Position numbers and translations under genes: made by a program. A model generated the notes under the pieces. It worked only from the letters and a program-made list of their open reading frames with translations. It searched no databases and had not been told where the DNA came from. A stretch of 59,316 nucleotides of DNA, filler included, from Sphacelaria rigidula (Eukaryota): NCBI GenBank assembly GCA_964200075.2. It is 6 parts of 6 records of this genome, joined end to end, with 100 filler letters (N's around TTAATTAATTAA, not from the genome) between each part and the next. Parts side by side here need not be neighbours in the genome. Positions count along the whole stretch, not along the records: positions 49,515 to 59,316 come from CAXNAA020007732.1; 5 more parts are not named here. The stretch is one strand, 5' to 3'. The first letter of the stretch is position 1, and each line of letters opens with the position of its first letter. Below are positions 849-59,316 of this stretch, piece after piece.

Positions 849-1600
849 TCAGCGTTTGGGCAAGTTTGGCAAGTACTGTCTGTAGTAGCTTAGACCTCCC
901 AACAAGGAACGCAGTTGAGAAATGTCCCGTGACATGGGCATATCGGAGAGTGCGGCGACCTTGTCAAGGTTTGGGCTACGACCTGCGGGGGTGATGCAAT
1001 GACCCAAGAACTCAATCTTCGTGGCGCCAATGCAGGATTTGGAGGGTGCAAGTTTCAAGTTGTGTTGTTCAAACCGATTGAAGAATGATGCCAACTGTTC
1101 GACGTGTTCAGCCGGTGTGGAGTTGTGGCACACTGCATCATCAAGGTACATACGACATTTGGGCAATCCATCAGTTACACGGAACATTACACGTTGAAAC
1201 GCACCTGGAGCTCCGGCGGCACCTTGTGGTGTAACCAGCCACTCGTATAAACCTGATGGCGTGCAAAACACTGTCAGTTCAATGGAATTTGGATCCATCA
1301 CGAGCTGGTGGTACCCAGACTGCATGTCAAAGTTCGAAAATACTTTACCCAGCCATAAGAGTCAATAATTTCATCAATCCGTGGAAGTGGCAGCCGGGCG
1401 ATTTTGGTGACAGCGTTCAATCGTTGATAATTGACCGTCAGTCTGATTCTTCCATTCTTCTTACGGACGACTACTAAAGGCGAGGCTCACGGAGACGCCG
1501 AATGCCGAATCAAACCGGCAGATAAGTAACCATCAAGAATTACCTGGATCTTATCCGCTAAGAGGAGGTTCGTACGGTACGGACGCATAGCGATAGGCGG
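849..1600 (-). pseudogene. Gypsy reverse transcriptase domain (disrupted)
   Basis: YLDD catalytic motif, SGYHQ, PQG..GAP..FQR, K.EFLGH and LRSLLG..SYYR. Split by stops between ORFs 1487-2575 and 849-1325. Confidence 0.95.
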
Positions 1601-4600
1601 AGTGCCATCAGGAATCTTGATCTTGAACGGTGTCGTGGTATATCGACCTACATCGAAGGGTACAGTAGAAAACCGTTCAGAGTATCCGATCAAGATGGGT
1701 TTCAATCTATCGATTACAGTGGGTGTCCAACCATCGCCAGATAGATCAAAAACAATATGCCGTAAGTGAGGGGGGATGTCATCCCACAACTCTTGAAAGC
1801 TGGCGCGTTGTTCTGAAGAAAATCTATCCAGTAATGCAGTCGGGGGTTGAGGGTCAGGCGCATCCGGTGGATTTGTCACCACCATGGGGTCAGGCATGTG
1901 TAGCGGAGGGGGGGCAGTGGATTTCGGGGGGTCGGTCGGCGAGTTGTTGTTCGCCGGGGGGCACACATCTGACAGGGCGGTTCGTATGAGAGGCGCTTGA
2001 GCATAGCCCAACAACTGAGCGTTGAGAATATCGAAACATGCAGGGGACGTGAGGTAAATGGCCTGCCTACCTTCATGGACAAAACCTTCGGTCTGTTCAA
2101 ACGTACCAACCTGTGCTTGGTCATGTTTGAGCAACTCGACCAAATAATGTCCTGTGAGGGCGGGCGATCCATTGCGTCTCACGAGCTTCACTTGGATTAG
2201 TTGGGGTTCACGAAAAAGCGAGATTGCCGGTTCACCAACATAGTACAGGCGGAAAGCATTACTTGTTCTCGTGGGGTCATCCTCATAAGCATGAGCTCCC
2301 GAATCAGTGTCGAAGTGACCCAGTGACAGTTTGCCCGTGACTGGACGGTTCGGGACAGGTGTGTCCGTCGTATACGTATGTGTGGAAAAACGAAGCCAAC
2401 TATCTCGATCGAACAAAACATCAAGATACATGGAACCGTCGGGCACAATTAGTGCCCATACGGACAACCGAGCAGTGGGAGTAGTATCCTGGTAGAATTG
2501 TACACTTAGTCTCACCGATTGATTGGCCGTAAGATATGTGGAGGAACTAAAGCCACCGAAGACACGGGGGTGCACGGTGGACAGACAATGCTCGTCCGCC
2601 GCGCCCGCGTTGATAATCTGTTACCAGCAGCTTGCTGTGACGAACGTTTGAGGCGAACCAGAAATTGGTAGTGCAAGAGCTATCAAATGACAGTTTGCAC
2701 GCGCTCCACTATGTAAACCTATCTTGGTCGTAAAAGAAGCATCATCCAGAGTTACAGTACCACTGACGAGGTCGGGCCCGAATTTGGGTAAGACGTCTGA
2801 CAAATCCTGCTTTGCGTTTTGAACGAAGGTGCTAGAATACACGCGTTGATGATCCTGCGGGACAAGCTTTTGCTCGGAAGGATGGTGCGTGCAGGGAGTG
2901 TCAGTGTTTGTGCCTGAAATATTTGTCTCATCAGTCGAGGGTTGAATCTCATATAATGCAACGGAGGGGCGATGCCGAGGAAGGGCAGTTGTTGTTGTTG
3001 GACCCGACAACTGATCTGTGCGTGGTGTTTCACCCTTATTGGCCAACAGAGGGGGTGAATCGTCATTGTGCAAAGCGGGATCAATTACATTATCCAGCTT
3101 GGTCGGAACAGGGGGCGATTCATCGGGGCGCGGTGTTGAGTTTGATACGCCAATCAACTCAATACCATCACTAGTTAGGGCCAACATGGAAGGTTTCGGA
3201 GACGATTCGTCAGAACGCGGGGTTGGTAAAGCTGTACTGTTCAACCCGGCGTCCATTAATGGGTCAACGTGGGCGAGTTAGGAGACGAGTCGTCTTGCGT
3301 AACACTTTGTTTGCCTGGTGACGAACACACGATCGAGGTGCCTTTATGACTAGGATGCGAACGTCCATGAGTCGGCGAAGTCTCTGTCCCTACAGACGGC
3401 AACGCTTCATCGGAAATGGGTTCTAACGCAGTGCACGCGGGGTGGCCAGATAGCAGTAATGATCTGTTCGAAATCTGGGAAGTACCGGCCGGTTCCACTC
3501 GAAGGTTTTCATCTGTCTGAGCCCACACGCAATCTCCTCCTTGGAGTTCACGTGCGCTTGCTACATCAGGATTATTTACATGATCATCTGGAGGAGCCCG
3601 TCTCTGGTGACGCGTGTAGCGCACGAAAGGATCGGCGGCTCCAGGAGCTATCGAAATGAGTTCTTGGACAGTCGAACCTAGGTCACGCTCTTGGCGCACC
3701 ACCTGAGTCGCTGTCACTTGGGGTGCCATTTCAACCCGCTGAGCGACGGAAAGCGTGGGTTCTTTGCGGTTGCGACCCTTCAAGGAATGGATACGCTCAT
3801 CAAATAAAAGGGAACCGGGTACCGTAGTTTTTGCGGAACTCGGTAGGGTGGTTAGCCGGGGACTTGAGCGGTTGGGGAGTGCTTGAGTGTGTGGCTTTGA
3901 ATTTTGTGTTCTCCTATGAACGGTCGGAGCAGCAGTGTCCATCGTATCAGAAGATATTTCGGCTCCTGACGCGTGAGAAACTGCACTAAATGACTTCCTC
4001 TCCCTCGAAGGGAGGGGATTCGAATATTATTAGTACCTGGTGAGTGTAAAACTGGGTGATCAACTCCAGGGTTAAAGCGTTGGGTTTGGTCACTGCTCAA
4101 TTGATAGCCATGCAACGGTGCACGGGCTTCGATTGTCTTGGAACCCTTCAAGGCAGTGTTAGCATATCCAGGGAACCAACCCCACATGGTTGAACCCGCG
4201 GTGGCCACCGCTGATTCGTGCGTGTGATGTGTGTGACCTGGCCGAGCGAAAAATAATGATGGCATAAAATTGTTGGAAACTTCTGCGGTGAATTACCGGT
4301 CACTGTTTATTTCTGATTGTGGGATTGTACCGACTGATGAGAAATGAACTACAGAAGTAGAAAATAAACAGGCAGGTGGCGGCGCTTATGTGTTGGGCTA
4401 AGCAACGCGTCCTAGGTCACCCCACTAAATGCTATTTGAATATCCGGAACTTGTAGAACGTTCCCAAAAGGTTGTCAATTTGTGAGGTGAGCATCAGTGT
4501 TGTGTGGGTACCGCCCTGGCGGGGTTCAGCCGCGGCACTAGGTCCACTTCATGTGAAACGTCGCCCGTTTTGTGAATGGGCCGGTGCATGTGATTGAAAG

Positions 4601-9803: not shown

Positions 9804-9903
9804 NNNNNNNNNNNNNNNNNNNNNNNNNNNNNNNNNNNNNNNNNNNNTTAATTAATTAANNNNNNNNNNNNNNNNNNNNNNNNNNNNNNNNNNNNNNNNN
9901 NNN
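9804..9903. other. Artificial contig linker (44N-TTAATTAATTAA-44N)
   Basis: Identical 100-bp spacer with stop codons in all six frames, recurring about every 9.9 kb. Confidence 0.99.
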
Positions 9904-19706: not shown

Positions 19707-19806
19707 NNNNNNNNNNNNNNNNNNNNNNNNNNNNNNNNNNNNNNNNNNNNTTAATTAATTAANNNNNNNNNNNNNNNNNNNNNNNNNNNNNNNNNNNNNN
19801 NNNNNN
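19707..19806. other. Artificial contig linker
   Basis: 44N-TTAATTAATTAA-44N. Confidence 0.99.
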
Positions 19807-29609: not shown

Positions 29610-29709
29610 NNNNNNNNNNNNNNNNNNNNNNNNNNNNNNNNNNNNNNNNNNNNTTAATTAATTAANNNNNNNNNNNNNNNNNNNNNNNNNNNNNNNNNNN
29701 NNNNNNNNN
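29610..29709. other. Artificial contig linker
   Basis: 44N-TTAATTAATTAA-44N. Confidence 0.99.
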
Positions 29710-39512: not shown

Positions 39513-39612
39513 NNNNNNNNNNNNNNNNNNNNNNNNNNNNNNNNNNNNNNNNNNNNTTAATTAATTAANNNNNNNNNNNNNNNNNNNNNNNNNNNNNNNN
39601 NNNNNNNNNNNN
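39513..39612. other. Artificial contig linker
   Basis: 44N-TTAATTAATTAA-44N. Confidence 0.99.
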
Positions 39613-49414: not shown

Positions 49415-49514
49415 NNNNNNNNNNNNNNNNNNNNNNNNNNNNNNNNNNNNNNNNNNNNTTAATTAATTAANNNNNNNNNNNNNNNNNNNNNNNNNNNNNN
49501 NNNNNNNNNNNNNN
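49415..49514. other. Artificial contig linker
   Basis: 44N-TTAATTAATTAA-44N. Confidence 0.99.
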
Positions 49515-51485
49515 AAACCTCCTACAATGTCCCCTAGCTCGACTCTGTACACGAGTCACCCTACCCATCCGGGCGTCGGTCCTCAGAAAGGTGTTCGTTT
49601 GCCCTCCTACGACCCCCTATACGTGGTGAGGATTGGGTTATGGTCGGCGCATGACGGCACCGACTGTCGAAGTTTTTTTCCTGATAATCGGGTTTTTCCT
49701 CACAGAGTTTCACCGCTGGCTGGGTTTTCCCGCGGCAGCTCTCAGATATATTCGTTTCCGAGAATCCTTCCTCACCACCCGCCCGACGCCTTCGACGGAG
49801 GAAGTGGCGCAGAGGAGAGAGAGTGTTCAATGGGGGGCCCACCAGGAGTGCGATATGTGATGAGTAAGGCCTGCGCCCTTGCGGTGGACTGTTCGTTTTC
49901 CTTCTTTAATTCTGTTCAAGGGAACACGGTGCGGATCGTGAGCACGTAATCGTGAGGGAATCCATCCGATTCAAGTCGCAGGCGCGATCCCAGCGCTATA
50001 CACGTGGTGGATCGGAGCAGGCCGTGGATCGACAGAGCCATGGTACTTACTCCCTTCGTTTGCGGGCACACGTCGTCGCCTGTGATTCAGTGGGGTAAAT
50101 TGTAGGATGCGTTTTTTTATTCTCCATCTGGTACACGCCGGTGTGGTGTACAAAGTGGGTGCGGTGCACACGCAGGCTGGTGCGATTGCGCTCAGGGCAT
50201 TCCGCAGGTGGGAGTCGACGGTCATATACGCGAGAAATCACCCTGTTGTTGAGTGGGTGATTCATGAGGTTTTCTGTACCCCCCCTCCCCCCCCCCCCCC
50301 ATGCCGGGGGGGGAGGAGGGACGGGAGGGCATAGTGTGACAAAATTCGGAAGCAACTGCGAAAATAAGCGATAACCCGGTTGACTAGCTTGCGCAGTGAC
50401 TGATGTGTTTTACGTTTACAGTGTCAATGCCATCCGACGCCAACCCGATAGCGGGTCTGTTCCTACAAAGCTGGGAGGGAGCACGCAGGGTTTTCGCCGG
50501 AACAGGCTCGCACTCGATCACCAAGCACGAAGCGCTGTGGTGTGTATGGCGAATCGCATGAAGGGCGAGCCGTATCCTGCTCAAGACTGTACGGCCCGAA
50601 GCGTACCGACCATCTTGCATGCATGCAAATGACAGCCTGCAGTGAATGGCTTCATTTTCTGGTATCGCCACTTCCAGAGATGGCCCGCGGCTTAAACACT
50701 GCATCATGGGTGTTTTCATCATACAGAGGAAGGGGGGAGGGGGGAGTCGTTTGGCCACTGATCACGCAATCCTTTCGAGACGGAGGGAGTACTCATGATC
50801 TCGCATGCCGTTGTCATGGGGCAATTGGCCTTGCAACCCTGAAAAGCCAGGACGGAGCACGCCGGGATTTCGCCGGACCAGGCTTTTGAGAGGAGGGGGG
50901 GAGGGGGGCATTGCCCAAAATTCGATAATTTGATGATGCCTGACTATGACCGGATATAGATATAAGGGAAAGGGGAGCGGAGGGGGGATAGGAGTGGTCC
51001 AAGTGTCAGCAACGTCCGCCCTTATGGATTAGAACAATATTTACCGATTTCACTCTTTGACCGATACGTCGATTGATGTTTCGATCGCACTTTAGATTAC
51101 TGCATACAAAAAAATGAGCTGTATGCTTCAAGCGGTGTGTTCATCACCACCATGTGAATGTATGCCCCAGCGAAATGAACGAAACCAATCGCCGAGGGAA
51201 CCCCGACGACAAAGGTGCAGAAAGATGAAGAAAAGGGGAAGCTACGAAACACAGCCACACACACATAATCGAGAACCACCTCGGCTGCTCGCACAGTACA
51301 GCAGGCGCCTGTAAGACCTCCAAAAACATCCGAAGACATCTCACCGTGGGGTCTAGTATTTCGTCCGTGGGCAAGCGGGGAACCAGGAGGAGGAAGGGAC
51401 GCGGGGAGAAGATATAAAACAAGGCACCTACCAGCGATTGTAACTTCGGGAACCCTCCCTTACGCAACAGGACATGTTTGGTCAC

Positions 51486-51607
51486 CTCATTTGCTTGCCA
51501 CGTTAACGACGAGGAACGCCTTCTTCTCGCCCCGGTACGTCGACAGGTCCACCTCGCCTCCGGTGGCGTCCTTAACCTTGAAGTCGAAGATAGATTTCGT
51601 TGCCACT
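51486..51607 (-). CDS. GPX: Glutathione peroxidase exon 3 with in-frame TGA (predicted selenocysteine); gene continues beyond the recognisable sequence
   Basis: gacag|A GTG...AGC AAA TGA G|gtgacc encodes [41 protein letters not shown]. This is the canonical GPx N-terminus with TGA (51487-51489) at the peroxidatic residue. Confidence 0.92.
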
Positions 51608-52155
51608 CTGTCGTCATGACGGGTAGGGGGCATGATCCAACACAAGGAGGGCACGACAGACGGAGGCGGGGCAGATGAAGTGGGGGAAGGGTTTTGTCCG
51701 ATTAAGTTACTCACGCCTGGAACGCCCACGCCTTTCTGCTCCAAGAATCCGACCGGGCAGTTCCGAGGACATTTGGAGTATGGCCATTGCATGCAGTAAT
51801 TGCTCTCTCATGGCCTCTCTGAGCGCTCACAGGGATAAAGCCGTTTTTTCTTGAGAGTGTGGCGAGTGTAGCAATCTGTGCTAGTATCAACTATTCATGT
51901 GGTGGAGCGGGCGACGTGAACTTTGGGGGGAGTAGGGAGGGGGGGTCACCATGCTTGGCACTCACAGCTGTATCTACGGCAGGCTCCGTGACACCATTTA
52001 ACGCAGCCGCAGCACCTCCGTGTACTACGCAGTGCAATCGCCCTGCATCTACTCGGTACTGTCTGTACTGTCTGTACCGACGACGGCTAAGGCATGCGCG
52101 TGGCCAATCAGTGCATGCATGGATAAATCAATCAACATATGCAGCCCACACTCAC

Positions 52156-52336
52156 GCGCCCCCTCCGAAAAGTTTCCCCAGGTTGGCCATCATGGTGGAG
52201 CGGGTCGAGTGCTGTCGGTTCGAGGAGCAAGCGTCGTTGCCCTTGAATGATGCGGTGTTGCTCAAGTTTTCACTGCTACGGGAAGCAAGTGCGGCGCGTC
52301 CGGAGGTCGCGATCGCCGGAACGAATGCACGAGTGC
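52156..52336 (-). CDS. GPX: Glutathione peroxidase exon 2 (plastid transit peptide)
   Basis: tttcag|GC ACT CGT GCA TTC GTT CCG...GGC GC|gtgagt encodes TRA-FVPAIATSGRAALASRSS...STRSTMMANLGKLFGGG(A). Phases fit both neighbouring exons. Confidence 0.82.
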
Positions 52337-52469
52337 CTGAAACGCGGAAGAACGGATATGCGGCATGTACAACACAACACGTGGACGGAACAAATGCGTA
52401 CACGAAACGGAACACTTTTCACGTGAATCAGGATATAGCGAAACGCGCGAAGCGGAACACCGAAAAAAC

Positions 52470-53479
52470 CAAGGTTGTATTCTGTAGGGTACGGTTTTCT
52501 GTATACCCACGGTGTTTTGCCGGGTATTTACCGTACCCGAAACTTTCATATTGGTACCCAACAGTTCTGTAGACTCGAGTCTTTCATATCCTTACCCGAT
52601 AGTTCCGTGAGTAATGTAAGCCTCGAGGGTTGTGTCCTGTAGGGTACGATTTTCTGTATAACCGGGATATTTTGCCGGGTATTTACCGTACCCGACAGTT
52701 CTGTAGGCCTTCCGTACCTTTACCGTGGGGCACGGGTATGCTGTAGATGAGATACCCGGTCGCGGGTAAGATTTTCTGTGCAACCTCCATACCCTACCCG
52801 ACAGCTTCCGTGAGATATTCAAGCCTCCCATACCCTTACCCAATAGTTATGTGAGTTCTGTACAAGAACTTTACCCTAACCCGAGGGGCGGGTATGCCCT
52901 AAAAAAGTTACGAGATTGCCAGTACCGGTTTTCCGTAAGCCTCCCGTACGGTACCCAACAAGTTCTGTGTTTTCTGTGAGACTTTCATACCGGTACCCGA
53001 CAGTTCTGTAAGTTCTGTAAGCAATTTCATACCCTACAGCTACCCGTACCTTACACAACACGCCCTTCTTGCGCCTCCCCGACCGTTACCGGGGGCACGG
53101 GTACGCTCTCGATAATATACCCAATTGCGGGTACGGTTTTCTATGCAGCCTCCATGCCCTGTACGACGACAGTTTCGGTGAGTTTTGTACGCCTTCCATA
53201 TCCTTACCCGATAGTTATGTGTGTACTGTACGTAATGTATGCCCGTACCCGGAGCGCGGGTATGCCCTCAAATAAATACCCGATGACCGGTACGGATTTC
53301 TGTAAGCCTCCCATACCGTACCCGAAACGTTTTGTAATTTCTGCAACACTTTCAAACAGGTACCCAACAGTTTTGTAATACCTTTAAGACCGTCATACCG
53401 GTACACGATATTCCTGTAAGATCTGTACGGAATCCTATACCCTACAAAACATACCCGTACCCTACGGAACACAACCTTG
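52470..53479. mobile_element. hAT-type non-autonomous element (1010 bp) in GPX intron 1
   Basis: TIRs CAAGGTTGTATTCTGTAGGGTACGG / CCGTACCCTACGGAACACAACCTTG and a perfect 8-bp TSD GAAAAAAC. The interior is built from TACCCG/ACAGTTCTGTA subrepeats, and the left end is duplicated at ~52625. Confidence 0.9.
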
Positions 53480-54995
53480 GAAAAAACAACAGGCGATAAT
53501 CAATGACCGTTCCACGCGCAGGGGGTGGATCCCGATTTTCCTCAAGCAGACGCCTATTGGTTGCATGTCAAGGTTGACACGAGTGCTCGGCCGCTAGCGC
53601 AGGTCTATCAGCGTACGTTCACATCGGTGTCACATAACCTTCTCGACTCCTGGATCCTTGGTCTGGGGGGGGGGGGGGGGGGGTGTGTGGGGGGAGGTTG
53701 GTCGGCTTTCCCTTATCCCGTCGGTGCGGGCGGGGGTGGNNNNNNNNNNGATAGCGCGGCTGGTTGCGGGCGTGGGGGCGGTGCGGGGGGGGTGTGAACT
53801 GTTCGGGGGACGATTGTCTCGATTCCCTTAATTCCTAGGTCGCGATGCGGGTAGTCCATTTCGATCACGCATACTTTTTTCGAGTGAAATTGATGCCGAT
53901 TCTGCAGGCAACCTACCCTCGCGGCCAAAGGGTTGGCCGTACCATACCTGAGGTGTATAAGTACTGTTTTGTACTGACCGCGATACTACTACAGCTCTTG
54001 GATGGTAGTTTGCGCGAACGCGAAGCGGCGGTACAGCATGGTGTATCTATATACCCTGCCAGAACATACGTCAGTGCACGAACGCCATGACTTTAACGAG
54101 TATGCTCCTTCCGTACGGACAGCCGATACGGTCTCCCTGTAGACTGTCTACAGCCATTTGACCGTTTACGGACAAGGACGTTTTTCCGTGTGCTATGCTG
54201 ATTCAAGTAGTAGTACTGTCTGTACTGCTCTGACTACTGTGAACTATACATGGAACCGACCGCACCCCCGTGTGTTACACCAAACCGGTTTGGGCTTACG
54301 ATACTGTACATATCCACGGTCGAGTCAGCTTGGCATGTACCGAGTCATTCGCAGGTACACTTCAACAACTGTATACAGTAGCGTACGTACACCATCATCA
54401 GAGAGAGGCGATGGGTGTGTGACGGAGCGGGAGCAGATGCCAAAGGAAACCCCGCGTACTCCAAAGCACAACTGTACACGCAGCACAATATTGCAAATCC
54501 TTGCATTGCATGCGGGGTGTCCTCTCTTGAGGTGATATGACACATGTTTGAGTTCTGACTGACCGTGACTGTAATGTACCCAACTTACTGTCTGTACCAG
54601 CCGACTCTATTTTCCATTGCGGCATCTCTCGCCATGTGCGGATGTCGCACTGGCTGCGCAGAAGGCGGCGTCATAGTATAACCCAGTGGCGACATCCTCA
54701 ACTGAAAGTTTTCGAGGGACAGGATAGACCTGGTACCTCCTGGTAGAACCCTTGCGTTGAGAGGTCTTGAGAGCTTTCTTCCGTGCCGGTAGGAAACTGT
54801 AGAGTAGGGTATCAAACTATGGTGGTGTGATTTTACTCTTAGTTTCACAAAGGTTGAAACGACTAGTAGAGCGGGGGTGGGATACCCCTTCTCCGTAAGC
54901 CGCTCTACAGCTGTTTCCTCCTGCATAAAATGCACCGGGGCACCATGAGCCCTATTTTCCACCTTCGTGCGTGCTTGTGTATGTATGTATCTTAC

Positions 54996-55047
54996 CTGCA
55001 AGCATGGAAAGCAGCAATAATATCCCGCTGAGCCAGAGACGAACCAT
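54996..55047 (-). CDS. GPX: Glutathione peroxidase exon 1 (signal peptide)
   Basis: aagcATG GTT CGT...CTT GCA G|gtaaga encodes MVRLWLSGILLLLSMLA(G). The phase-1 end fits exon 2. Confidence 0.75.
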
Positions 55048-56169
55048 GCTTTGCTGGTGTGAAGGTGGACACAAACTGTGCCCTGATGATTGTTGATTAT
55101 TGAGGTGCAGACCGAACAAAAACTGACACAGCAGTATTGGAGGCGTGTTTTTGTAACGTCATGTTTTTTTTGCTGCTTGAGCTTGGGATCTTCGGATCGT
55201 GCATGTATCTGGATCCACCTATGTGTGGTAATAGTGACCCTATTAGTCATTTCACTGCCCTAGAGTAGGATCCATAGGCACGTTTCGTATGTAGGTGATG
55301 CACAGACGGATATCAGTTCTCGTCCACCTAGTTATATACCGGTATTCCATCCTCCATCTATCGGCGGTCAAGCTGAGAGAAATGGTATGTCGAGTCTCTG
55401 TTGGTTCTCATCCCATCTTCGGGATTGCCGGCGGTTTTGTCTGCGAGCACTTATCTTTCGGAAAGTCGAGGTCTAGATGCTCCTATTACGGGAGATATTC
55501 CTCATGATGGGCAGGGATACAGGCTCAGATTTTGGCTCCACATGCATCTAATGATCATGCGATCTACTTACATTTGTCACCCCAGTACATATACCAAGCC
55601 GTGTGTGTACGGGTATTTTGTCGTGTTCCACAAAGATCCATCCGTTCTAGACCCCGCGCGGGTGACACGTGGTGTGGAGAGTGCTCGTGAGTGCACGGGC
55701 CAGCGAGCATATTTCAAACACCACACACACCTTCAGATACAAACATTGGGTGAAGCATTGATTTAAAAAGTGGCCGTGACTCGTTCGTGCAGTTGACTCT
55801 TTACAGCAAAGACGTTGAAGAGTAACACGCCAAACGTCTGCTGCTGCCTTTCGGTCTTTTGGCTGACTTTCGTGTTGACCACCTGGCATAGTTCAGAACC
55901 GACACACGCCACAGCCATTGCCGTGGTTCACACTGTACGGCGATTGCAGTTAACAGAGGTGTCCACTGTGCTTTGCTTATTCACAGCTGGTGGTGTGCAC
56001 AACTCTAGTATTCAGCTGTTCCTTGATCTTTTGGTGCACACTAGCAGCGGTGCTTCTATCGCTGTGTGCACCACACGAGCGTATATCTTGTCCGAAACTA
56101 CATTAATCGTACACGTACCACACCCGCGCTGATAACTGATATTTTGGCGGTCATCAAGGTTTCGGCGAT

Positions 56170-56460
56170 ATGGTCTCCATCACCTTCGACGAGTTTCATG
56201 CGCTTCGCACACGCCAGCGTGCAGAGACACAGGCAGCAGCAACGGCATCAGCGCAACAGCAAGAGATCCGCACAGCTAGTGTTTTTACCACACCATCCCA
56301 ACGACCAGGGGAACAACGATTGACCATCCGGAGGGCGGTCGAAGCTCGTAGTAGTAGCATCAACAAGACTGGTGGACTCGGGTCGGTTTTTTACGATGGC
56401 AGCGAGGAGGACAGTGACGGGAAACCTACCGCCGGCGAAGTTGCGCCTAGATCAGGATCG
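56170..56460 (+). CDS. Candidate first exon of a gene divergent from GPX
   Basis: ATG-initiated 97-codon frame (MVSITFDEFHALRTRQRAE...GEVAPRSGS) ending at a consensus phase-0 donor TCG|gtgagt. No family is recognised. Confidence 0.4.
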
Positions 56461-57044
56461 GTGAGTACGCAGCAAGGTAGGAAGAAGTGTACAGTGCAAC
56501 TATGAGGGACATTTTGTACGGTAATAGTGACTTTGTTCGGTCGCCGTCTTACACAAGTTCGTCCTGCCGCACAAGACGCCCTGCTCATCTATGAGTAATT
56601 CATTGAAGCTCTACAAAGTACGAAGCATCATAACAACATTCCACTCGACGGCAAGCAGCGTACACGAATGCGATAGCCCTGCACACTCGGTTGGTATACT
56701 ATATCGTACAATACTCTGTGTTACACCACGAGTCATGTTTTGGAATCAGCCTAGCGAATGTGTGCAATAAATATGTGCAATGACCATGCGTCCCATATCC
56801 ACATCATGGTGTGTTTTGGTACTGAATCCGTTGCCAGCTACATATAAGTGGAGCTGGCCATCAGCTTATCGGTGAAGTACACACGCCACGGCTTGAATTC
56901 CATTTTTTCTGCGTATGTTTATGGCCGAGTGAACTGAAGCATATACGAGCCTGGCCAGGCTGAAAGCGGATTGGATAGCCACAGCCATGTCATATCGAAA
57001 CAGACGAACTCGGCCGTGATCCGCACATCTTGTTTATCGTGTAA

Positions 57045-57124
57045 GGGTGCCTTCAATCTCAAATTTGGACCTTACAGACGTTGCACAAGGTCTGTAACGT
57101 CCAAATTTGAGGTTACAGGCACCC
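57045..57124. repeat. 80-bp hairpin (39-bp arms, 5 mismatches, 2-nt centre)
   Basis: GGGTGCCTTCAATCTCAAATTTGGACCTTACAGACGTTG-CA-CAAGGTCTGTAACGTCCAAATTTGAGGTTACAGGCACCC. Confidence 0.85.
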
Positions 57125-57740
57125 CAGTGGCCAACCGTGTTGGCAGGTAGGTGCTCATCTCCTCAACAGCCCGGTCAGATACTTGTATCGTCGAGTAAAT
57201 CCCGTCAGTATGAATATACCCCAATACTGAATTTCATACGAAACCCTGAATCACAATATCAGCGGATGACGCTGATTTGAGGTGTGGAGATTTCTTGGGG
57301 CACGGGGAAACGACTATCATCCTCACCTTCACCTACTTCATTACCTGTCGAGACATGACACGAAGAAGATCCCATATCATATTTACGATACTTCGAGGAG
57401 ATATATACTAAACCTGAATCTAGCGGCTCGGCTTTGAGAGTTGTGTTTTGAAACCCGGCGTGGAGTATCGCGGGAGGTTTTCGAAACCTACTGTGGTTCA
57501 TCATGTATTTTTTCGCGAATTGCGGGCATTTTGTGATGAGCTGATGTAGGTTTTGGCCCTTGACTCACGCAAAAAATCGAAATTCCCCACAAGTTTTGTT
57601 GACGCTCCTCCCTGCGATGCTCCATGCCAAATTTCAAAGCGCAGCTCTCAGAACTGAAAAAGATATATCAAATTTCCAAGCGCATATTTCAGAACTGAGC
57701 GGTAAAGCGCCTGTCATGCAGAGATCCACGTGTAATGCGT

Positions 57741-57931
57741 GAGAGGACCGCATGCTTAGAGGACCGCCCCGTAGTTCAAAACACCTCAGGATCGATGTTT
57801 TTCGAGACCGGTCGGGCCAGTCCCTGCAGATACCACGCCCTTGACGATAACCCTAACACTAATCCTAACCCTAACCCTAACCCTAGGGACGTTCAAAATA
57901 CGATGCGGTCCTCTAAGCACGCGGTCTTCTC
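57741..57931. mobile_element. MITE containing a (TAACCC)n telomere-like tract
   Basis: TIRs GACCGCATGCTTAGAGGACCGC / GCGGTCCTCTAAGCACGCGGTC, with six TAACCC-like hexamers at 57848-57883. Confidence 0.8.
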
Positions 57932-58410
57932 ACACATTTCACGCGTCTACACTGGCTCAGCCCGTACCGTACGTAAGACTGAACGCGCTTTTATCACCAA
58001 TATCTACCTCGCGCATTTGTTCACCACATTATATCGACATGCAGGAGGCAGCGCGCCGTTTGCCGGCTGACACGGAACGCCCCGTGTGCATAATGTCTAC
58101 ATGCACCGAATGAAGGCAATGGTTTGGGTATAGACCGACAGTATATCAATAATATATATATATATGGACTAACCCACTGCCGTTGCCTGTGACATTGCAG
58201 TAGTATACTAAAGTTGTCGGTCTATGTTGCGATACGAGCGTTTTATTATGTGGAAGTGGAGCATTTCCTGCCTCTCTACCAAATGTTATGGCCTAGGCAT
58301 ATTTGAGAATCAATGCGCCATTCTCTGTGACAATGATACCGGATGGACTGTACTGGCAGCTTATCTCGCGGTGGCGTCCCTGTGGCCTCAGGCGATGAAA
58401 GAGCGATACT

Positions 58411-58664
58411 GAGACATGCTACGATAGGGAGGGGGTATTTTGGGCCGTTTTCTTCCACGAAATTTTACCCCAATCGCCGTTGAAAGTAGCAACAGTTGTT
58501 CGAACGCACTTGGTCCCGATAAATAACGCTAAGGCATACTGCATGACACCGACTTTACCCAAATTTAAGCGCGCCGCGAATGTGTGAGGTCGTTTGACGC
58601 ACCTATGAGCCCATTTTGTTCGTGGAATCGAACACTCCCCTCCCCCCCTATCGTAGCATGACTC
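58411..58664. mobile_element. Complete 254-bp member of the GAGTCATC(C/G)TACGATAG(G)n TIR family
   Basis: Left end GAGACATGCTACGATAGGGAGGGGG and right end CCCCCCCTATCGTAGCATGACTC. No clear TSD. Confidence 0.8.
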
Positions 58665-59316
58665 AATCATCTTCGATATGTGCACATCTTGTGTGTGTAC
58701 AAATTCTGAGCGTGGTGATGAATTAAACACCCGTTTGATGTTGGAGAGGCGAGGGGGGGTTCAGGTGGGTGCGGGAAGGGCGATATCCGCGGGAAATTGC
58801 GCTGTATCTTCGAATGTTATGCCCCAGCGGGGTGCGCGTGTACAGTAGGGTGGGGTTCTCATTATTGCGGTCACAATCTGCTACACGCCGCACATCTTGT
58901 ACTAATGTAAGGTACGTGTACGATAAAAGTATCGTGCAGAGTTCCAGCAATGTACGGCAACGTCAGGGTAGCGATCCATCGTACTGTGCTAGGACTCCCA
59001 CTGCACTGTGGCAATCAAGATCATACATAGGTAGGGGAATCTTACTGTAGTTCCGGTCGACTAAATACTATCACATGTCTTTTTTTATTGCCCTTCCATG
59101 CTACTTCTTCAGTAACAGGTAGTCATGAATCATCCGGAGGTTTGGGTGGTATGTTTCGCGGTTTCTGTCCGCATCCTTGTCAACTGCGTGTTCTGTAATC
59201 CACAGACAGTAGTACCATGGGACTACCAAGCAGGGTAGTTCATGTCAAGCAGTAAGTTTCGAGAGGGGGGGGGGGAGTATACAACGAGATACAAGGAGTA
59301 GCAGCAAGAGCCGAGA

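Follow-up and report, generated by a model that had tools for sequence, protein, structure and literature searches.

Brown algae have 5-6 selenoprotein genes, as a passage of PMC7539508 gives the number, and the same source reports GPX to be a selenocysteine (Sec)-containing enzyme in the majority of 36 algal genomes. Sec-GPX is recorded as observed in Ectocarpus siliculosus and Chlamydomonas reinhardtii in a passage of PMC12315940, and GPX1 and 2 of Chlamydomonas are named as the selenium types in a passage of PMC8873139. A brown-algal Sec-GPx is of a kind already known, and the locus that we describe here is a further example rather than new biology of kind. It lies in a window of 59,316 bases of DNA from Sphacelaria rigidula, by which we mean the whole stretch that was analysed. 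From comparison with related sequences we read it, with good confidence, as coding exons 1 and 2 of a nuclear GPx gene whose catalytic residue would be Sec, encoded by an in-frame TGA. This reading is drawn from the four short relatives of the encoded peptide, all of which stop at the same column, together with two of the papers above on brown-algal selenoproteins and Sec-GPX. In Chlamydomonas GPX1 and GPX2 and in the mammalian GPX4-type selenoenzymes, which belong to distant lineages, a UGA-encoded Sec occupies the same active-site column. For these enzymes the SECIS element and the incorporation of selenium have been demonstrated experimentally, whereas for the window locus both are predicted. 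In setting the locus beside them we assume that it belongs to a GPX4-like subfamily.

Closer counterparts are found among public protein models. The same N-terminal exon product occurs in P0137, an NCBI record from Ectocarpus sp. 13 of 51 aa (77% identity in alignment A2, 86% by BLASTP), which is a spliced model ending before the catalytic column and shares with the window both the start-region motif LGKLFGGG and a protein end at the same column. The window sequence is nearer to the Ascophyllum-type sequence P0139 (82% in A2, 91% by BLASTP) than to P0137, and Ascophyllum appears from these comparisons to be its closest named relative. We infer that P0137 and the window gene are orthologous to the published Sec-GPX of Ectocarpus siliculosus. 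A longer Ascophyllum nodosum protein, P0002, is deposited as an ‘unnamed protein product’ of 235 aa and is 88% identical over exon 2 of the window gene by tblastn. Its upstream extension aligns with the window too, and beyond the exon it has the downstream body to be expected, FPCNQF and WNFTKF included; the signal-like N-terminal extension of P0002 has its own Met, which is not in frame in the window. Outside the brown algae, the closest named full-length protein is the GPx of the raphidophyte Chattonella marina var. antiqua (P0021), with 58% identity to P0002. Chattonella P0021 and the window lineage have in common a two-residue KK insertion before the FLVVNVAS strand as well as an N-terminal extension, but the P0021 record has C at the catalytic column, unlike the TGA of the window. 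Among solved structures, the exon is matched best by plant Cys-GPXs such as poplar GPX5 (PDB 2p5q), at E 1.7e-7 to 5e-5; they carry Cys instead of the TGA and do not have the two-residue insertion.

Six pieces, each about 9.8 kb long, make up the window, and linkers of 44 N, TTAATTAATTAA and a further 44 N connect them at 9804-9903, 19707-19806, 29610-29709, 39513-39612 and 49415-49514. The GPx locus, a minus-strand gene, is on the last piece (49515..59316), where an extra run of 10 N is found at 53740-53749. Features near the ends of pieces are cut off artificially, the 3' part of the GPx gene being an example. On the first piece, retrotransposon pol remnants occupy the minus strand at 466-1361 and probably extend to about 4026. 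Pfam places RVT_1 (E 3.1e-21) and RT_RNaseH (E 1.2e-23) there in adjacent overlapping frames, so the element at 466-1361 is probably frameshifted; those of the adjoining long ORFs at 1487-4026 that were scanned match no Pfam family. On the GPx piece, an interstitial telomere-like repeat (TAACCC x 6.3, the complement of TTAGGG units) lies at 57848-57885, roughly 5.7 kb ahead of the GPx start. Directly upstream of the 5' end of the gene, imperfect repeats of about 41-42 bases fill 52400-53500. TRF rows at 52949-53033 and 53312-53408 fall in this field, with 70-81% matches, and in a six-frame listing the same short words reappear across about 1 kb of it. The field may represent a satellite that has decayed, or else a MITE array, within the promoter region.

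The minus-strand ORF at 51487..51807 ends in a GPx N-terminus with NVASK. A preliminary description of the locus had identified the peptide (...FLVVNVASK) as such from the sequence, and two kinds of search agree with it. When the TGA was read as U and passed on as C, the query matched the Pfam family GSHPx (PF00255) over 41 residues, at profile positions 1-34 of 108, with an E-value of 3.9e-6 and a score of 26.8 bits, which places a single exon just under the family's gathering score of 27; when the TGA codon was left out, the match fell to E 0.0074. A profile built from 9 GPx relatives recovered the ORF at E 1e-11 as the only significant match among 2,998 six-frame pieces of the window, and as the next best piece reached only E 8.9 the GPx match is beyond chance. 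Exon 2 encodes the N-terminal strands of a GPx together with NVAS-x-(C/U)-G, the motif of the active site. When the exon is set against the solved GPx chains 6vpd, 2p5q and 2v1m, its TGA column coincides with the C of their SKCG or CKCG motif, a residue that we take to be the peroxidatic cysteine. The TGA at 51487-51489 does stand, as had been proposed, at the Cys/Sec position of GPx, and the locus shows one of the marks by which selenoprotein genes are recognized, namely an in-frame TGA aligned to the Cys of homologues.

The gene model supports the same placement. Exon 1 as modelled (52156..52193, minus strand; 38 bases, phase 2) opens with ATG ATG at 52193 and closes at a GTGAGT donor (GT at 52155..52154). 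The frame stays open into exon 2 only if the junction falls after 52156, and the start of the joined product of the two exons resembles that of Ectocarpus P0137 and also the internal Met region of Ascophyllum P0002 (residues 53-64). Intron 1 (51608..52155, minus strand; 548 bases) runs from GT to AG, with a pyrimidine-rich stretch and then CAG at 51610..51608 as its acceptor; the genomic ORF P0139 and the spliced Ascophyllum-type P0002 diverge at the same point as the boundary of this intron. Exon 2 (51486..51607, minus strand; 122 bases) contains the GPx N-terminal strands, NVASK, the TGA and the first base of the Gly codon. Both exons thus have canonical GT/AG signals, with an open frame across their junction. 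The proposed Sec codon, the in-frame TGA at 51487..51489 on the minus strand, would be codon 53 from the modelled start, at the catalytic column. Bases 51489..51487 of the minus strand read TGA and are followed by G and then by GTGACC, whose GT (51484..51485, minus strand; G|GTGACC) is the donor of intron 2 and splits the Gly codon in phase 1. This GT at 51485 is the only one downstream of 51501 near the TGA, so a Cys codon cannot be formed by canonical splicing. These features agree with the preliminary description, which had noted the G and GT donor after the TGA, had argued that a spliced Cys codon is impossible, and had given 51607 as its end coordinate, the first base past the good acceptor at 51610..51608; our one addition to it is the strand, which is minus. 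Unspliced read-through past the TGA would give a non-GPx peptide that meets a TAA after nine codons. The presumed 5' part of intron 2 (49515..51485, minus strand) runs off the end of the piece.

Upstream of the modelled start, the stretch at 52194..52343 on the minus strand is in frame with the start codon, and its translation is like the N-terminal extension of the Ascophyllum protein, with which it shares TRAFVPA, a motif that we take to resemble the heterokont plastid-import motif. In tblastn, residues 16-64 of P0002 align to 52343..52158 (E 9e-5). The ORF at 52152..52418 holds no in-frame ATG ahead of 52193, and tblastn found no upstream exon matching residues 1-15 of P0002 on the minus strand of the window. 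An ATG at 52366 was considered as the start of a presequence, as it resembles the M-x-H-I of Ascophyllum, and was rejected as out of frame with the TRAFVPA stretch. A good acceptor-like site, with a pyrimidine run and CAG, lies just ahead of the conserved upstream stretch. The stretch at 52194..52343 is a 5' leader or else belongs to a targeting presequence that starts elsewhere, and possible readings of the ORF at 52194-52418 include an undetected upstream signal-peptide exon, alternative starts and a lost presequence. In GPX4, organelle and cytosolic isoforms arise from two starts; by analogy, the two possible starts of this lineage might give rise to organelle and cytosolic isoforms as well.

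The most telling comparison is with short proteins that end where the window frame meets the TGA. A search for relatives limited to 22-70 aa gave four candidates, all of which matched, at 82-91% identity by BLASTP. All four (P0137, P0138, P0139 and P0140) break off exactly one residue short of the catalytic column; in these relatives the stop is seen as the end of a protein and not as DNA. They are 74-82% identical to exon 2 over the aligned exon, and the residues just before the stop, S-K (S-Q in one), are kept in each of them. A stop held at one column within flanks of 74-82% identity across relatives points to selection rather than decay. Judged by this alignment, the five sequences, that is, the four relatives and the window, present the pattern of a Sec codon and not one of decay. 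A second mark of selenoprotein genes, conservation among orthologues of the stop at the catalytic column, is likewise seen here as protein ends in 4/4. This bears directly on the idea that the TGA results from a sequencing or assembly error, or from a recent nonsense mutation, that changed TGC or TGT to TGA in a Cys-GPx. Most of the GPx homologues found do have Cys at the TGA column, and Cys codons are one change away from TGA, but we regard such an origin as scarcely credible, since four independent relatives end at the same column and one error would not recur.

The short records could also be taken at face value. Ectocarpus P0137 is annotated as a protein of 51 aa, and the TGA of the window might truly terminate translation, so that the locus would give nothing more than a peptide of some 52 residues or a transcript subject to degradation. 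To this we give hardly any credence: no function is known for a GPx strand-turn fragment that stops just one residue short of the catalytic one, and the Ascophyllum model shows the same gene going on to encode a complete GPx body. If the UGA is instead decoded as Sec, the 51-aa Ectocarpus sp. 13 protein, which ends at the residue before the catalytic column, is an instance of the truncation by ordinary gene finders that had been predicted from the window sequence.

Mis-splicing had been predicted alongside truncation, and the 235-aa Ascophyllum model fits that prediction. P0002 reads N-P-A-R in place of S-K-U-G and then continues as a normal GPx body including FPCNQF and WNFTKF, whereas P0139 matches P0002 at each of the 38 residues that lead to NVA and then has S-K as its last two residues. 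Compared in this way, P0002 appears to be a gene model routed around the stop by a mis-splice, and the genome behind the Ascophyllum-type lineage carries a stop at the catalytic column. In the window, a GC dinucleotide (GCAAAT) occurs at 51494, exactly after the codon position where P0002 departs, and may show how a predictor could route round the stop. Such a splice might also be real: transcripts might pass around the TGA as in the Ascophyllum model, possibly from the GC donor at 51494, and yield a GPx-like protein with no catalytic Cys or Sec. The path of P0002 from NVA through N-P-A-R into a normal GPx body would be explained in this way, as would the position of the GC exactly at the departure of the model. 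We nevertheless consider a genuine splice of this kind highly unlikely. Its product would be without the catalytic residue, and the S-K (S-Q in one) between the GC and the stop is kept in 4/4 relatives, which indicates that these residues are coding. The P0002 model itself shows a second odd stretch, at residues about 143-158, where it has a longer unrelated run in place of the Q-E-P-G-S and then E-I-x-x-F of its relatives; this suggests another imprecise exon junction. Apart from P0001, which is the ORF of the window itself, the search for longer relatives yielded P0002 as its one close match, and the other longer matches were ordinary Cys-GPxs at 63-68% identity. A search with the P0002 body found no other close full-length protein, its best matches being GPxs of plants, Coccomyxa, Achlya and Chattonella at 41-60% identity.

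The minus-strand sequence available downstream, from the donor to the end of the piece, amounts to 1,972 bases. Only one coding base precedes the donor after the TGA, and exon 3 was not found in the window. Nor were later GPx exons found there by a six-frame motif scan (FPxNQF, WNF and similar), which returned only the known exon, by tblastn with P0002, P0003 and P0014 (best E 0.21 beyond exons 1-2) or by the profile search of the 2,998 six-frame pieces. The rest of the catalytic tetrad and fold (the Gln of the FPCNQF region and the Trp and Asn of WNF) is likewise absent from the window. The residual tblastn matches, at E 0.21 or worse, were discarded as glycine runs or as located upstream or in other pieces. 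Two candidate starts of exon 3 were also rejected: the ORF behind ‘ag|GT CTT ACA’ (G-L-T) at 51319..51311 is not GPx-like, and a second ‘ag|G-L-T’ site, at 49872..49864, is followed by non-GPx sequence. The window contains 7 copies of the pattern AGGNCTNAC, where 6.24 are expected, and 7 is reached in 41 of 100 shuffles, which is the level of chance. Rfam searches for SECIS gave no matches at the gathering score in the whole window; relaxing the limit to E 10 in 49515..59316 brought up 15 weak matches, all to families other than SECIS. The window contains no tRNA genes. Weak matches at 50263..50342 to miRNA and H/ACA snoRNA models fall on a hairpin of a C-run and a G-run and were set aside; this long hairpin, inside presumed intron 2, reaches no more than 31.4 bits, where the gathering score is 71, and is probably low-complexity sequence rather than an RNA gene.

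These absences invite the reading that the locus is a dead or partial copy, either a duplicated 5' fragment or a pseudogene of a Sec-GPx that has lost its 3' exons, in which the TGA would be ancestral and no enzyme would be made. Such a copy would explain why there is no downstream exon within 1,972 bases or elsewhere in the window, no SECIS in the piece and no in-frame start to the presequence-like region upstream, and the genome is evidently rich in repeats and retroelements. We think it unlikely, however, since exons 1-2 contain neither a frameshift nor an extra stop, both introns have canonical signals, and the exon keeps 74-82% identity to its relatives. The artificial end of the piece at 49515 would explain the missing later exons, and if intron 2 is longer than 1,972 bases the lack of further exons and of a SECIS is to be expected, so that the absences are uninformative rather than contrary. 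The 3'UTR most likely lies outside the window.

In arriving at our confidence in a Sec-GPx gene we have counted against it the single-exon Pfam score of 26.8 against 27, the presequence-like stretch that has no in-frame ATG, the C at the catalytic column of Chattonella P0021, the stop of the relatives being visible as a protein end, and the lack of a later exon, SECIS or tRNA in the window. Were the gene to work as we propose, it would be transcribed from the minus strand, and exon 1 (52193..52156) would be spliced to exon 2 (51607..51486), which would close with the TGA and the G that opens the conserved Gly codon. A long intron would then lead to exons beyond the 9.8 kb piece, of which exon 3 would complete the Gly codon, and the later exons would carry the rest of the thioredoxin fold (FPCNQF and WNF, as in P0002) and a 3'UTR with a SECIS. 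The SECIS would recruit SBP2, EFSec and tRNA-Sec, and the UGA at codon 53 would be read as Sec. The sequences themselves show the GPx family, the place of the TGA, the splice signals and a stop kept at its column among relatives; on this account we infer Sec insertion, a SECIS, downstream exons and enzyme activity for the locus.

The searches add that this lineage is represented in public records by models cut short or mis-spliced, as the preliminary description had predicted. The models found were the truncated one of Ectocarpus sp. 13 and the mis-spliced one of Ascophyllum, and no correct full-length model was found in a collection of 5.8 billion proteins. It is conceivable, at somewhat short of even chances, that the GPx lineage marked by the two-residue insertion, the N-terminal extension and the second internal Met is a Sec enzyme that is conserved throughout the brown algae and that has systematically broken public models. 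If this is true, brown-algal selenoproteomes and peroxide-defence inventories derived from annotation would be under-counted. The value of the locus lies mainly in a warning for annotation, its two named relatives representing the two classic failures, truncation at the UGA and a splice round it. A selenoprotein-aware annotation pass (Selenoprofiles, Seblastian) is needed: where standard models are the source, surveys of the antioxidant enzymes of brown seaweeds, or of their dependence on selenium, will miss or misread this gene.
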